Source: Myxococcota bacterium (lineage in GTDB: Bacteria > Myxococcota_A > Polyangia > Polyangiales > Sandaracinaceae). Taken from it: DNA of 64,000 nt. The translations under genes were made by a program, and so were the position numbers. The notes below the pieces were generated by a model. That model was not told where the DNA came from and did no database searches. It worked only from the letters and a program-made list of their open reading frames with translations. This document shows, one piece after another, positions 6,031 to 44,116 of the stretch; position 1 is the stretch's first letter, and each line of letters begins with the position of its first letter. The stretch lies in contig JAYZQJ010000074.1 in NCBI GenBank assembly GCA_036149055.1, forward strand, positions 1-64,000, given 5' to 3'.

Positions 6031-8045
6031 TGCGCTGGCTGCTCGCGCTCGTGCTCGCGCTCCTCGCGGTCGGCTGTGACCGCGGCCCCCGCCGCGGCGA
6101 GGGCGGCGGCGGCGATCAGTGCCTGAGCTGCCACCGGGGCATCGAGCAGGCGCACGGCCCCATCCCGGCCGACGAGTGCACCATCTGTCACGGCGGGGAC
6201 GGCAGCGCGCGGGAGAAGGCGCGCGCCCACGTGCCCATCCCCGACAACTGGGCCGAGGTCCGCGGCGACGGCCTGCCCCCCGCGCCCGAGGGCTTCATCG
6301 AGGACTTCGCCTCCGATCAGCTCGACGCCATCGACCCGGCCTACGTGCGCTTCATCAACCCCGGCGACATCCGCGTGATGTGGTCGAGCTGCGGCCGGTG
6401 TCACCCCAGCCAGGCGCGCTCGATGCCCAACTCGGTGATGACGACGAACGCCGGTCACTACTACCCCACCCTGCTGCTCGCCGGGCTCCAGGACGAGCCG
6501 CTCGCGCTCTACGGCTCCTACGAGGCCACCGACCCCGACTGCGACCCGAGCATCCCCGGCACGGTCTGCGAGGTCCGGCGGCTGGTCCCGCCCGGGCGCG
6601 AGGCGATCCTCGACGTGGTCGGCACCGGCGACGCGGGCGCGATCGAGGCGCTCGCCTACGACCACTACCTCGCGAAGAACTGCAACACCTGCCACCAGGC
6701 CGGCTACCCCCGCAACGACTCTCCCGGACTCTACCGCTCCACCGGCTGCACCGGCTGCCACATGATCTACGGCGAGCTGGGCAGCTACGAGGGCGGCGAC
6801 CCCACGATCCCGCGCGGCGTGCCCGTGCACCCGCTCCGCCACGAGATCACGCGCGCGGTGACGACCCAGCAGTGCGCCACCTGTCACTTCCAGGGTGGCC
6901 GCATCGGCCTCCTCTACCAGGGCATCCGCGAGGGCGGCTTCGGCGCGGCCTGGACCCCCGAGCACGCCGAGCCCATCGACCGGACCCTCTACGGGCACGC
7001 GGCGGGCTACTACTTCACCGACGAGGACACGCGGAACACCTTCGACGAGACGCCGCCGGACGTGCACTTCGAGCGCGGCATGCACTGCGCCGACTGCCAC
7101 GTGGGCGCCGAGGTCCACGGTGACGGCCGCCTCTACTCCACCTCCAAGCACCAGGTCGACCTGCGCTGCGAGGACTGCCACGGCGACGCGACCACCCCGG
7201 CCGCCCCCGGCGATGACGGCTTCTTCCGCACCGCGCGCGGCCGCCGCCTGCCGCAGCTCTCGGTCGACGCGGACGGCGCGGTGGTGCTGACCGGGATCGT
7301 CGACGGCGCGGAGCACCGCGTGCCGCAGCCCGCCCTGCTCCTCGCGCCGGGCGGCGGCGCGACCGACGAGATGCGCGCCGCGATGGGCCCGATGGCGAGC
7401 GGCTTCTCGCACGTGGGCAACCTGACCTGCGACACCTGCCACACGTCCTACAACCAGACCTGCGTCGGCTGCCACGTCAGCTACGACCTGCGGCTCAGCC
7501 AGGTCGACTACCAGACCGGGCAGATCACCCCCGGCCTCACCCGGGGCAGCCGCAGCGCCTACACGCTCGACACCGTGCTGCTCGGTCAGGCCCCCGACGG
7601 GCGCATCCAGACGGTCGTCCCCTCGCAGCAGGTGCAGATGGCCGTCATCGGCGCCGACGACTTCGGCACCGCCGACGGCGAGGTGCTGGTGGGCGCGCGG
7701 GACGGCGACCGCACGATCGGCGCCTTCCGGGAGGCGTTCGGATCCACCGCGAACAACGGCTTCGCGCCCTTCTTCCAGCACACCACGTCGCGCCACGCCC
7801 GCGGCTGCGCCACCTGCCACCGCCGCGACGACTCGGCGGAGGAGCTGGAGCGGGTGCGCGGCGTCTACGGCTTCGGCACCGGCGAGTTCCTGCTCGAGGC
7901 CCACGACGGCCGCATGATCGACGGCCTGCGTTTCCTCGCCGACGACGGGACCCCGACCACCACCTGGGTACACCCGGGCACCGGCCCCGTACCCGAGGCG
8001 CGGCGCGATCGGGCCCTCGGCGTGCAGCTCGACGCCCTCCCGTGA
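6030..8045 (+). CDS. Multiheme c-type cytochrome lipoprotein (11 CxxCH)
   Basis: ATG at 6030 and lipobox AVGC. Motifs: CLSCH, CTICH, CGRCH, CNTCH, CTGCH, CATCH, CADCH, CEDCH, CDTCH, CVGCH, CATCH. Confidence 0.9.
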   Translation: MRWLLALVLALLAVGCDRGPRRGEGGGGDQCLSCHRGIEQAHGPIPADECTICHGGDGSAREKARAHVPIPDNWAEVRGDGLPPAPEGFIEDFASDQLDAIDPAYVRFINPGDIRVMWSSCGRCHPSQARSMPNSVMTTNAGHYYPTLLLAGLQDEPLALYGSYEATDPDCDPSIPGTVCEVRRLVPPGREAILDVVGTGDAGAIEALAYDHYLAKNCNTCHQAGYPRNDSPGLYRSTGCTGCHMIYGELGSYEGGDPTIPRGVPVHPLRHEITRAVTTQQCATCHFQGGRIGLLYQGIREGGFGAAWTPEHAEPIDRTLYGHAAGYYFTDEDTRNTFDETPPDVHFERGMHCADCHVGAEVHGDGRLYSTSKHQVDLRCEDCHGDATTPAAPGDDGFFRTARGRRLPQLSVDADGAVVLTGIVDGAEHRVPQPALLLAPGGGATDEMRAAMGPMASGFSHVGNLTCDTCHTSYNQTCVGCHVSYDLRLSQVDYQTGQITPGLTRGSRSAYTLDTVLLGQAPDGRIQTVVPSQQVQMAVIGADDFGTADGEVLVGARDGDRTIGAFREAFGSTANNGFAPFFQHTTSRHARGCATCHRRDDSAEELERVRGVYGFGTGEFLLEAHDGRMIDGLRFLADDGTPTTTWVHPGTGPVPEARRDRALGVQLDALP

Positions 8046-40845: not shown

Positions 40846-42549
40846 CTACGTGTCCATCGCCGCGCGGATCGCGGCGCCGAGCGCGCGCGGGTCGCCGGGG
40901 GCGATCTCGGTGACGCCCTCGAGGCCACGCAGGCCGCAGGCGGGCGAGGCGATCACCGGGACGCCGCGACCGAGCGCGCGCAGGAGCGGCGACGGATCCC
41001 GGGGGACCCAGGCGGGCGCGACCACGACCGCGGCGCCGTCGAGCGGATCGGCGCCCGGCGCTCGCACCGGACGGCCCCAGTCGAAGCCGCCCTCGAGGTC
41101 GCGGCCGCCCACGATCAGCGGCGAAGGCAGCCCGCGCGCCGCGTCCCGGAGGGCGTGCGCGCCCTCGCGCCCGACCACCGGCCCGAGGAACGCGATCGCG
41201 TCGCCGCGGCGAGCGGGCGCGCCTCGAGGCACGCGCCACGCCAGCTTCACCGCCCGCGGCCCGAAGGCGTCGGCGATCGCGGCGTGGGGCGTGATCACGC
41301 GCCGAGCCCGGGCGAGCGCGACCTCCTCGTCGGCGACGAGCCCGGCCGGGGCGCGGAAGTCGGCGAGGGTCGGGCTCTCGGGGTGCCGGCGCGCGGCCTC
41401 GTCGAGGCGGGCCTGGAGGAGCCGCAGGGGCCAGCGACGCATCACCACGTCGAAGGTGCGGCCGCCGAGCGCGCCCTCTCGGTGGAGGTGCGGCAGGAGG
41501 TGCTGGTGCACCACGAGGTGGGTGTCCTCGGGCCCCAGGCGCGCGGCCATCCAGCCGGCCAGCCGGGCGTCGTGCGCGAGCAGGGCCCGCTGACGGGCGG
41601 CGCCCTGACTGCCGAGCCGACGGCTCTCGAGGGCGCGGCGCGCGACGAGCGCGAGCGCCTGATCGACACGCGAGAAGCCCGCCGTCGTCCAGGCGTAGCG
41701 GGGCCGCCGCCAGCGCTGTCCGTCGCAGGGGATCAGCAGCCGGTCCCCCGGGCGACGCGCGCCGGAGAGCCAGTCGTCGATCTCCGGCGTCACGCCGTCG
41801 AGCAGGAAGGCCGTCCGTCCGACCGGCGCGGCGAGCTCCGGCGCTCTCGAGACGCAGCCGGTGCGGGCGCAGCGGTCGCAGCTCCCGGTGGGCTCCGGTC
41901 GCCGCGCCAGCGAGACCCGCGTCGGCGCCGCGCCGCGCCCCCGCAGCCGCACCTCGAGGTGGGTCGCGTCGAGCGCCACCTCCACCCCGAACGGCGCCGG
42001 CGCGGTGAAGCGCAGGTCGACGTAGCGCCAGAAGACGGTGGCGTCGCGGCCGCGCTCGGCGAGCGATCCCGGCACCACGACCGAGTGGGCGTGCCGCTCC
42101 ACGATCTCGAAGCCGGCCTCGAGCGCGGCGTCGTAGAGGGCGTTCGAGAGCTGGCAGAGGCCGCCGCCGACCGAGGGCACGAGGCACCCCTCCCGGACCT
42201 CGCGCCCGAGCGCGTACCCGCCGCGCCGGGTGGGCCGGCCGACGTGGCGCCAGAAGCTGAAGATCTCGCCGGCCTCGAACCGCCGCCCGTGCAGCGCGCG
42301 CGCCGCGACCCGGAGGTTCTGCACCTTCCCCGCCTCGAGCCGCCGCTCGGCCGCGGGCTCGGCTGAGCGGGACCAGAGCGGGGTGCGCGAGCGCCCGGCC
42401 ACCGGGAGATGGTCGATCCCGCCGCGCCGGCCGAGCGGGGTGGGCGCGCGGAGCTCCGCGGCCGCGCGGATGAGCTGATGACGCGCCGCGCGCGCTTCGA
42501 ACCAGGCGCGCGACAGCTGCTGCCGCGCCCACGAGCCCTCGCGCTCCAC
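40846..42549 (-). CDS. VanW-domain protein fused to a glycosyltransferase-like C-terminal domain
   Basis: VanW motifs 'FSFWRHVG', 'GGGLCQLSNALY', 'ERHAHS' and 'DATVFWRYVDLRF', a CDRCARTGC linker, and a GT-B-like 'REGA...LLRALGRGVPVIASPACG'. Confidence 0.8.
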   Translation of the reverse strand: MEREGSWARQQLSRAWFEARAARHQLIRAAAELRAPTPLGRRGGIDHLPVAGRSRTPLWSRSAEPAAERRLEAGKVQNLRVAARALHGRRFEAGEIFSFWRHVGRPTRRGGYALGREVREGCLVPSVGGGLCQLSNALYDAALEAGFEIVERHAHSVVVPGSLAERGRDATVFWRYVDLRFTAPAPFGVEVALDATHLEVRLRGRGAAPTRVSLARRPEPTGSCDRCARTGCVSRAPELAAPVGRTAFLLDGVTPEIDDWLSGARRPGDRLLIPCDGQRWRRPRYAWTTAGFSRVDQALALVARRALESRRLGSQGAARQRALLAHDARLAGWMAARLGPEDTHLVVHQHLLPHLHREGALGGRTFDVVMRRWPLRLLQARLDEAARRHPESPTLADFRAPAGLVADEEVALARARRVITPHAAIADAFGPRAVKLAWRVPRGAPARRGDAIAFLGPVVGREGAHALRDAARGLPSPLIVGGRDLEGGFDWGRPVRAPGADPLDGAAVVVAPAWVPRDPSPLLRALGRGVPVIASPACGLRGLEGVTEIAPGDPRALGAAIRAAMDT

Positions 42550-42606
42550 GTCGGGTCATACGCGCCGGGCCCCCGCCATTCTTCCCCGGGGACGCGGCCG
42601 CGGCGA

Positions 42607-42676
42607 CAGGCCGTCAGGGAATCGAACCCTGCGCGGCGGGGGTTGGAAGCCCGCCTGTGCGCACAGCACCCGGCCT
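42607..42676 (-). tRNA. Non-canonical tRNA-Gly(TCC)-like element
   Basis: Acceptor AGGCCG/CGGCCT, T-arm CAGGG-TTCGATT-CCCTG, anticodon arm GCGGG-CTTCCAA(CC)-CCCGC and a minimal D-arm CTGT-GCGC-ACAG. No encoded CCA. Confidence 0.65.
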
Positions 42677-42726
42677 ATGTGGATTGTTCCGGACGGAATC
42701 GTCCGTTTGATCGCGCGTGCGATCGA

Positions 42727-42820
42727 TCGGGGTGACAGGACTCGAACCTGCAATGCCCGAAGGCTCCCGGGCTACAACCGGGTGGGGGTACCAGCTCGTA
42801 CCAGCTCCCCCTTCACCCCG
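42727..42820 (-). tRNA. Non-canonical tRNA-Tyr(GTA)-like element
   Basis: Acceptor CGGGGTG/CACCCCG, anticodon arm CCCGG-TTGTAGC-CCGGG, variable arm GCC-TTCG-GGC and T-arm GCAGG-TTCGAGT-CCTGT. The D-loop carries a 10-nt duplication. No encoded CCA. Confidence 0.72.
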
Positions 42821-42861
42821 CTCTCTCCGCCGTGCGGGGGCGGCGACCGGGCGGGTGACGG

Positions 42862-42896
42862 AAAAGAAAAACCGCCCGGCCTGGAGGCCTGGGCGG
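42862..42896 (-). terminator. Intrinsic terminator (attenuator) between the leader ORF and the tRNA-like genes
   Basis: Minus strand reads CCGCCCAGGCC-TCCA-GGCCGGGCGG followed by TTTTTCTTTT. Confidence 0.85.
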
Positions 42897-42924
42897 CGAT
42901 CGATCACGACGCGTACGCGACGGA

Positions 42925-42993
42925 TCAGGCCGACACCGGACCTCCGGTCGGAATGCGCCAGACGCGCCAGAGTCGATAGGTGTGACGGCTCAT
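42925..42993 (-). CDS. Putative 22-aa leader peptide MSRHTYRLWRVWRIPTGGPVSA
   Basis: ATG at 42993 and TGA at 42927-42925, lying directly between the promoter and the terminator. Confidence 0.6.
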   Translation of the reverse strand: MSRHTYRLWRVWRIPTGGPVSA

Positions 42994-43002
42994 GATGCCT
43001 CC

Positions 43003-43031
43003 GTCTTACGTCGCCTTCGCGCCCCTGTCAA
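43003..43031 (-). promoter_or_regulatory. sigma70-type promoter
   Basis: TTGACA (43031-43026), a 17-bp spacer and TAAGAC (43008-43003). It overlaps the methylase stop codon. Confidence 0.7.
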
Positions 43032-44116
43032 GAGATCAGTGACAGTTGTTCGTCGCCCTTCAATCCGGCTTCGTGGAACGCCCGCTCCACCGAGGCCGCG
43101 GCGCGCTCCACCCGAGCTCGGTCGGGGCCGACGAGGAAGATCATCTCCCGGTTGCGGGTGTGGCTGACCTCGCCGACCCGCCGGCCCTTGGGATCGTGGA
43201 TGCCGATCTTGGCGCCGACGTACCGATCGAAGCCGGTGGTGGCCACCCGGACGTGGCCGCGCTCGGAGAGCATCGCCTCGAGCGTCTCCCGGTCGAGGAA
43301 GCCCTCGTCGCTGAAGCTCACCACCAGCTCGGGGGCGCGCACCGCGGCCACCACCCGCGCCATCGCCTCGGCGATGCGGCGGCGGCTGTTGAAGGGGTTC
43401 TTGTAGGTCTTGCAGTCGATCCGCTTGTTCGCGACGCCGTAGGTCTCCGGATCGTCCCAGCGCACCAGGGTCTCCCACACGTGGTAGTTCCCCTTGTAGC
43501 TGTGCTGGTTGTAGGGCGGGTCGAGGTAGGCCACGTCCGCCTCGACCCCGGCCGCCTCCTCCGCCTCGAGCTGGAGCGCCTCGCCCGGCCCCTCGGTGAG
43601 CGCCGGCAGCCGCAACGCGAGCGGGTTGTAGCTGCGCTTCGCCCAGCTCTTCAGGTACGCCATCTGGACGCCGGTCGTGGAGTCGACGCGGTCCGCGGCC
43701 TCCATGAGCGCGGTGAGCGCGATGGCCTCGAGCTCCGGTGAGAGCGTCTGGGCCGCGATCGCCTCGCGCATGCCCTCCACCCGGGCGCCGTTGTCGGGCT
43801 GCAGGTAGCGCGCGTCCCGGCAGAAGGCCTGCGTGAACCAGCCGTCCCGCGGCGGCGCCTCGGCCAGCGCCTCGAGCAGCCGCGCGGCCGGCTCGCGGTG
43901 CTCCCGGGCGTCCGCCGCCACGTAGCAGCGCGCGAGGGTCGCCGCGTAGGCGAGGTGGTCGTTGGAGGTCACCCGGAGCCCGGCCTCCTTGAGCGCGCGC
44001 CCCACCCGCGCCGTCCCGCTGAAGAGATCGAGCGCGCGCTTCGCGCCGCCGAAGCCGGTGACGCCGGCCACGATCGGGCCGATGAGCTTGCGCTTGCTGC
44101 CGATGTACTTGATCAC
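43028..44116 (-). CDS. DNA adenine methyltransferase (D12/Dam-like class), apparently orphan
   Basis: 'KYIGSK', SAM motif 'DLFSGTA' and catalytic 'YLDPPY'. GTG start at 44116. Confidence 0.9.
   Translation of the reverse strand: MIKYIGSKRKLIGPIVAGVTGFGGAKRALDLFSGTARVGRALKEAGLRVTSNDHLAYAATLARCYVAADAREHREPAARLLEALAEAPPRDGWFTQAFCRDARYLQPDNGARVEGMREAIAAQTLSPELEAIALTALMEAADRVDSTTGVQMAYLKSWAKRSYNPLALRLPALTEGPGEALQLEAEEAAGVEADVAYLDPPYNQHSYKGNYHVWETLVRWDDPETYGVANKRIDCKTYKNPFNSRRRIAEAMARVVAAVRAPELVVSFSDEGFLDRETLEAMLSERGHVRVATTGFDRYVGAKIGIHDPKGRRVGEVSHTRNREMIFLVGPDRARVERAAASVERAFHEAGLKGDEQLSLIS

Follow-up and report, generated by a model that had tools for sequence, protein, structure and literature searches.

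A predicted ribosome-coupled transcription attenuator ahead of a two-gene tRNA cassette in a Myxococcota bacterium

Organization of the locus and its tRNA cassette

In a 64,000-nucleotide stretch of a Myxococcota genome (the window), the minus strand carries a compact element composed of a promoter-like site, a nearly leaderless open reading frame (ORF) of 22 codons, a putative 68-nt antiterminator, an intrinsic terminator, and then two degenerate tRNA genes, tRNA-Tyr(GTA) (42727..42820) and tRNA-Trp(CCA) (42607..42676), both of which had been overlooked in an earlier note on the leader. Upstream on the same strand lies a D12-class DNA adenine methyltransferase gene (43028..44110; PF02086, E 3e-30), the same neighbour being found in the same-genus genome G001. 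Downstream is a gene with a VanW-like domain (40846..42549, minus strand; PF04294, E 1.6e-33), in which the domain occupies residues 75-200 and is fused to about 360 residues without a Pfam match. This gene has been retained in G001 but is replaced by another gene in G018, and it is probably not core cargo. With the order being two tRNA genes and then the VanW-like gene, neither tryptophan biosynthesis or synthetase genes nor a whiB7 gene are found behind the switch.

The putative -35 box TTGACA (43026..43031, minus strand) overlaps the stop codon of the methyltransferase gene and is followed after 17 nt by a -10-like box, TAAGAC (43003..43008, minus strand), with the ATG of the leader ORF located 9 nt further on. 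From the position of the latter box a 5′ UTR of only 2-3 nt is predicted, in agreement with the nearly leaderless message that had been suspected. A second copy of the switch in the same genome has an identical -35 box, a 17-nt spacer, and a 9-nt gap to the ATG, and this start codon lies 8-14 nt past the -10 box in 26 of the 42 related loci with a promoter call. A GGAGG sequence (42998..43002, minus strand) could serve as a Shine-Dalgarno element only where transcription reads through from the gene upstream, and is present neither in the orthologue nor in the paralogue. A strict consensus scanner applied to 42300-43500 reported 0 promoter-like and 0 terminator-like sites, because its rules exclude a -10 box with C at the last position and a terminator stem with a bulge, both of which occur here. 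The absence of a promoter from its output would also fit an ordinary constitutive terminator of the methyltransferase gene accompanied by a chance ORF. This explanation seems barely credible to us, as no other promoter-like site was seen between the terminator and the tRNAs, and the family described below speaks against it as well.

The leader ORF (42925..42993, minus strand; MSRHTYRLWRVWRIPTGGPVSA) is identical in the sequencing run X14 and holds Tyr6, Trp9, and Trp12 within the zone where a stall is predicted to permit antitermination. Its two Trp codons are not adjacent, meaning that the tandem Trp control codons of a trpL-type attenuator are absent, and the orthologue has a single Trp. Codons 6-22 can pair among themselves in a competing leader hairpin (42930..42976, minus strand; -23.3 kcal/mol). 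The small 3′ hairpin contained in it (42951-42930), to which the earlier note had drawn attention, does fold, albeit with only -9.7 kcal/mol, and the longer structure is the main competitor. The intrinsic terminator (42862..42897, minus strand; -22.3 kcal/mol) consists of a stem at 42897-42871 with 11 bp and one bulge, and a U-tract extending to 42862. In the putative antiterminator (42880..42947, minus strand; -36.5 kcal/mol), codons 16-22 and the stop codon are paired with the 5′ arm and loop of the terminator. Its base is formed by the duplex of 42947-42936 with 42892-42880 (-15.7 kcal/mol), and it is closed by an apical hairpin at 42902-42926. At the leader, Rfam cis-regulatory families gave sub-threshold matches only (RF01772 rnk_pseudo, 24.6 bits against a gathering threshold of 55, E 0.09), while no Rfam leader match at gathering was obtained for six homologous loci. 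Short ORFs carrying RLWR/WRxWR-like motifs were sought across the whole genome, giving 111 matches; two of these had a U-tract, and the only credible leader among them was that of the window.

The tRNA-Tyr gene is called by ARAGORN at 42727-42811 and, on reading its sequence, has a long variable arm, no encoded CCA, and a C1-G72 pair. The latter is common to the mini-cassette tRNA-Tyr of all three genomes that carry it (window, L002, L003); tRNA-Tyr genes of arrays have G1-C72. By an identity rule, C1-G72 may hinder the bacterial TyrRS or affect which synthetase charges the tRNA-Tyr. The tRNA-Trp gene has a minimal D-arm and is supernumerary, given that a canonical tRNA-Trp is present on contig C47. 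A canonical tRNA-Tyr was not found in the 96% complete assembly, and on these data the cassette tRNA-Tyr cannot be called spare. The only other above-threshold Tyr call of the assembly is a short tRNA-Tyr(GTA) (G000:C208, 24813-24883, minus strand), which stands alone and has no leader, no variable arm, and a 6-bp-looking acceptor. In addition, a near-identical 91-nt sequence miscalled as a tRNA by ARAGORN occurs at six places in G000 (C30, C42, C94, C128, C150, and C192), two of them at contig ends, and is probably part of a repeated mobile element.

Several observations suggest that the cassette may be dispensable or decaying, in which case the switch would be real as a family but the window copy would control pseudo-tRNAs and no longer matter. 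The D-arm of tRNA-Tyr contains a strain-specific 10-nt tandem duplication (42788-42807) that is missing from run X14, which otherwise holds the whole cassette, and the Rfam tRNA score of this gene is barely at threshold (29.5 bits against a gathering value of 29). Of a third gene, tRNA-Ile, G018 has an intact copy and G001 a remnant, and the window has lost it altogether. Moreover, two RNA-library runs of a single study yielded contigs in which 42597 is directly followed by 43027, without microhomology, so that a 429-nt stretch (42598..43026) extending from the promoter spacer to just past tRNA-Trp is skipped; this is probably an empty allele, or else a library artefact. The lack of cover over the cassette in RNA runs X17 and X18 corresponds to contigs joining across it and therefore has no bearing on expression. 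The C1-G72 pair can be counted on the same side. On the other hand, every part of the switch is intact, from promoter and frame to antiterminator and terminator, the leader is unchanged in run X14, a second species has the cassette at the same site, and the stems of tRNA-Trp have been kept via two compensatory pair changes against the G001 orthologue (by reading of the alignment). Weighing both sides, a relic without function is considered unlikely.

Folding of the leader and the position of the ribosome

The 151-nt region folds better than its shuffled versions (z -3.06, with 2 of 200 shuffles as good), and the duplex at the base of the antiterminator likewise surpasses shuffles of its own 5′ strand (z -3.1). 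Terminator, ORF, and antiterminator duplex are present as described in the earlier note, whose proposal of a ribosome-coupled terminator/antiterminator switch is upheld in this respect. When ribosome footprints were imposed on the folding under three assumed sizes, the antiterminator was retained with the P-site at or before codon 11, 12, or 13, and lost from Ile14 on. In snapshots ending just before the terminator 3′ arm, it sequesters the terminator 5′ arm with a probability near 1 throughout this permissive zone, which takes in Tyr6, Trp9, and Trp12 (waiting in the A site) and leaves the RIP codons outside. With a ribosome placed on codons 6-12, the terminator nonetheless remains the more stable structure at equilibrium, by 7-10 kcal/mol, and its lead rises to 13-15 kcal/mol once the ribosome is past codon 12, so that a switch could only be kinetic and regulation would have to be co-transcriptional. 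According to these folding models, the antiterminator is predicted to be mutually exclusive with the terminator while overlapping the 3′ part of the ORF, and read-through would be set by ribosome position.

The reading preferred here, which we regard as probable, is a transcription attenuator coupled to the ribosome, which would control the two spare tRNA genes of the cassette by the slow-ribosome logic known from whiB7. Briefly, RNA polymerase would start a few bases before the ATG. A ribosome keeping pace would pass codon 13 and cover codons 16-22 and the stop codon, which make up the 5′ strand of the antiterminator, whereupon the terminator would fold and transcription would end near 42862. 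A ribosome lagging at codons up to 11-13 would leave this strand free to pair with the emerging 5′ arm of the terminator, and transcription would continue into tRNA-Tyr and tRNA-Trp. As for whiB7, any slowdown of translation would permit read-through, and whether the codons for Tyr6, Trp9, and Trp12 confer the highest sensitivity to loss of the very tRNAs under control is a matter of about equal chances. A role for the Trp codons, which the earlier note had proposed, is plausible because a tRNA-Trp gene is part of the cargo.

Other elements of that proposal fared less well. It held that a stall around WRVWRIP would favour the antiterminator; in the footprint folding, a stall at RIP breaks it. 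RLWRVWRIP had been highlighted as a motif, yet VWRIP is absent from the same-genus orthologue: the G001 leader, which begins MTRRTYQLWRASLL, shares the pattern of the first ten codons, with Tyr6 and Trp9 kept between the two species, and has diverged in the second half. The sensing of a specific drug also found no support, with the second half of the peptide not conserved and no R/K-x-R/K found in the first 15 codons. A drug-specific arrest peptide, in which RLWRVWRIP would stall with a macrolide-type drug or with free tryptophan and thereby induce the VanW-like gene, draws on the Arg/Trp-rich sequence, on the lack of any visible terminator between the tRNAs and the VanW-like gene, and on the retention of this gene in G001. 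The diverged orthologue, the missing R/K-x-R/K, the effect of the RIP stall, and the absence of a VanW-like gene behind the G018 cassette make this highly improbable. Finally, the earlier note took lack of conservation of the peptide among homologous loci as evidence against the switch. The peptide sequence does lack conservation, whereas the reading frame has kept its stop position.

A family of switches and the codon content of their leaders

A scan of the 9.9-Mb genome of the window for promoter, short ORF, and terminator yielded exactly two units, both situated before spare tRNA genes; the second has a 72-codon leader and precedes an array in which a Ro60 gene accompanies at least 16 tRNA genes. 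Relatives carry the cassette at the same site (G001, leader MTRRTYQLWRASLLSSTISIGAAVPV) or a homologous switch before a Tyr-Trp-Ile cassette (G018, leader cut by the contig end). Across 185,579 genomes, a three-arm pattern matched 42 loci, of which the eight titled Myxococcota, Myxococcales, Polyangiales, or Sandaracinaceae all precede tRNA arrays with the stop codon abutting the antiterminator strand, while none of the remaining 34 has tRNAs and these were dropped as ordinary gene-end terminators or unrelated. Covariance-model matches were obtained in 16 and later 20 of 32 genomes of the family, in 11 of 15 of the sister family, in 33 of 151 of the order, and in 6 of 151 of the class, with weak matches including ordinary gene-end terminators. 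A phylum sample gave matches in 11 of 151 genomes, and the 11 new loci inspected comprised one clear member (G111), two possible ones, and others that are not members. From 64 metagenome matches to the pattern, 24 were inspected together with one duplicate of a genome locus and four new members were kept; the single viral contig matched by the three-arm pattern is not a member.

After inspection, 41 loci and then 17 more were kept (58 in all), and a tRNA call lies downstream in 38 of the first 41. The rows dropped as gene-end terminators or unrelated (4 of 22 and 8 of 21) were all without a tRNA call, as were a further 28 of 47 dropped along with two duplicates of G124, among the matches listed. 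Up to several copies of the switch occur per genome, with two in G003, and the other cargo behind them comprises Hen1 with Pnkp, a kinase with Thg1, RtcB, Ro60, and HIT genes, as well as HNH-like genes recognised by eye. Tyr and Trp genes of the same type as those of the window belong to arrays of 11-29 genes in relatives, the window having two genes only.

A number of further observations were made at these loci. In several cassettes the tRNAs are followed by an SPFH/band-7 gene (L137 = G120, L135 = G124, L140 = G125), with rtcB behind it in G120, the genome whose proteins alone were scanned, and a tRNA-like gene with the anticodon TTA, which would read ochre, lies about 325-393 nt after the terminator within a small array of L122 (G013). 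A second conserved three-arm hairpin with a U-tract and a conserved interior is located behind the attenuator of L056 (~7570-7680; G000:C148, between the first terminator and tRNA-Lys) and, 60-180 nt after the terminator, of L130 (G017), L112 (G022), and L125 (G008). It gave no Rfam match at gathering in L056 or L130 and is possibly a tandem, ribosome-independent switch at these four loci. In genus g7, none of 7 genomes matched, and no such leader was found in the 420 nt preceding a Tyr-led array; the Tyr-led arrays of this genus (L006 = G021, L009 = G016) start directly downstream of a protein gene, where no unit of promoter, leader, and terminator was seen, and may be controlled differently.

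As judged from sequence comparison, the reading frame and its stop position are conserved in this family and the peptide sequence is not. Of the 42 loci with a promoter call among the 58 kept, 38 have a first ATG whose frame runs to a stop at the antiterminator, against 3.1 expected from shuffles, or 5.2 when the last 100 nt are kept. Among loci with a tRNA call the count is 30 of 34, which is the fairer figure because matches without such anatomy had been dropped. The leaders range from 15 to 117 codons, with no common peptide motif seen. The consensus helix of the terminator has 11 pairs, four of them with compensatory changes (13 sequences), and folding recovered the antiterminator topology across the stop codon in all 13 first homologues. 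The antiterminator pairs of a sequence beat swapped pairs (p 0.008, 38 sequences), with a gain of only about 1 kcal/mol; the median z was -1.4, and no more than 16 of these sequences lay under -2. A column scan of the model alignment gave the terminator and one short helix only, without any antiterminator helix reaching 75% column-wise pairing; since the arm shifts register, the antiterminator was judged by per-sequence energies. As for the constitutive terminator considered above, the weak-scoring model matches are indeed mostly of that kind, whereas the open frames, the near-pangram leaders, and tRNA cargo behind many different upstream genes argue against it.

Selection on leader codon content across the family is well supported. 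Nineteen leaders precede arrays with at least eight amino-acid types, and 11 of them encode every one of the 19 non-Met residues, where base shuffles would lead one to expect 0.9; the near-pangram excess is still present for the 12 leaders left after collapsing kin. Smaller cassettes include leaders with 8 Gln in 23 codons before two tRNA-Gln, 20 Leu/Asp in 69 codons before Asp-Leu-Leu tRNAs, and 22 Ser/Pro/Tyr in 47 codons before Tyr-Pro-Ser tRNAs (each p at most 0.001). When leaders were permuted against cargo across 16 small-cassette loci, with those lacking a match counted too, p was 1e-4; a repeat gave 2e-4, in which the G001 row included a distant tRNA-Pro outside the cassette and G003a and G019a were both in the base set. 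The p value becomes 0.04 without the three strongest loci and 0.18 when the window is removed too; the match was noticed before it was tested and is thus post hoc, the signal is driven by few loci, and the loci are kin. Four small or cut cassettes examined later showed no match (p 0.11-0.73), one of them (m195) being the same locus as G124. Two leaders of 17-18 codons with His at codon 11, one of them with three His codons (HHH), stand directly before a kinase and the gene for the tRNA-His guanylyltransferase Thg1 (L110, G004:C90; L106, G054:C489).

At the window, 3 of 21 codons are Tyr or Trp against 0.6-0.8 expected (p 0.02-0.04), and tRNA-specific tuning of this copy has about an even chance of being real. 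Trp is present in 39 of 53 leaders regardless, and the G018 leader shows no Trp in its 15-17 visible codons, yet tRNA-Trp follows. It is conceivable, if somewhat short of an even prospect, that the same switch is a general sensor of slow translation, with the Tyr and Trp codons as incidental leftovers of a longer all-amino-acid leader and a response, not specific to any tRNA, to starvation or to antibiotics acting on the ribosome. In favour of this, the majority of family leaders are near-pangrams, the later small cassettes lack a codon match, the excess at the window amounts to only three codons, and whiB7 answers many amino acids and antibiotics, as reported (10.1101/2023.06.02.543512). Such a sensor does not readily account for the strong matches in the unrelated Gln, Leu/Asp, and Ser/Pro/Tyr cassettes, for the persistence of Tyr6 and Trp9 between two species despite the diverged second half of the peptide, or for two Trp within 22 codons, the other four leaders with at least two Trp being 51-108 codons long.

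Implications and relation to known systems

A broader proposal, advanced tentatively and at somewhat less than even odds, is that Myxococcota may run a distributed tRNA homeostat, in which every cassette of spare tRNAs and every RNA-repair operon would be served by a separate attenuator with a leader written in the codons of its cargo, and loss of a tRNA, for example through anticodon nucleases of prey, rivals, or phages, would turn on a substitute of divergent structure for precisely the tRNA lost. The leaders would then hold codons of all amino acids for full arrays, Tyr and Trp at the window, Gln for the Gln pair, and His for Thg1. Supernumerary tRNA genes in long arrays are widespread, yet for the most part unexplained, and in the sources consulted their control is known from Anabaena and, indirectly, from WblC. 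If they act as predicted, these switches would constitute a second, repressor-free control of spare tRNA arrays that reads tRNA supply directly, would predict for each cassette which tRNA loss induces it, and would make the RNA element the definition of one regulon comprising tRNA arrays together with Pnkp-Hen1, Thg1, RtcB, and Ro60 repair genes.

Classical amino-acid attenuators (the trpL, hisL, pheL, and ilv leaders) exert control by a leader peptide. The Myxococcota switches resemble them in having putative control codons upstream of the antiterminator strand, predicted protector, antiterminator, and terminator hairpins, and a possible sensing of charged tRNA. However, the classical systems control biosynthetic or synthetase genes, whereas the output at the window is tRNA itself, and the latter differs from the trpL type in its nearly leaderless mRNA and in lacking tandem Trp codons and trp genes. 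No paper on leader-peptide attenuation of tRNA genes was found in a search of the titles and abstract starts of freely accessible papers, and the phrases tRNA gene, tRNA operon, and Myxococc do not occur in the main text of an attenuator survey (PMC2965389).

The tRNA array (L-array) of the Anabaena trn operon is induced when translation is impaired and controlled by direct repeats at its promoter and a repressor (PMC8421152; see also the TrcR paper, PMC10272220); the main text of PMC8421152 contains none of the words attenuation, leader, and Myxo. Supernumerary tRNA genes and linked HNH and rtcB genes are common to this array and the Myxococcota loci, the window representing a two-gene fragment of an L-array-like array, not a long tandem array.

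A close likeness is with whiB7/wblC of Actinobacteria, where, according to two studies, an upstream ORF (uORF) is followed by an intrinsic terminator, efficient translation leads to termination and stalled translation to the antiterminator (10.1101/2023.06.02.543512; PMC7157823), the codon content of the whiB7 uORF decides which starvation induces (10.1101/2023.06.02.543512), and WblC, itself a transcription factor, activates six tRNA genes (PMC7157823). The window switch has the same arrangement of uORF, terminator, and translation-dependent antiterminator logic and would work like a whiB7/wblC leader, being likened to it by logic, not by sequence relation, and not a member of that class. While the control logic itself is known from whiB7, tRNA-gene and RNA-repair cargo was not found described as a target of leader-peptide attenuation: in whiB7/wblC the cargo is a transcription factor, which feeds back positively and acts as an indirect activator of tRNA genes, whereas in Myxococcota the tRNA and RNA-repair genes stand directly behind the terminator.
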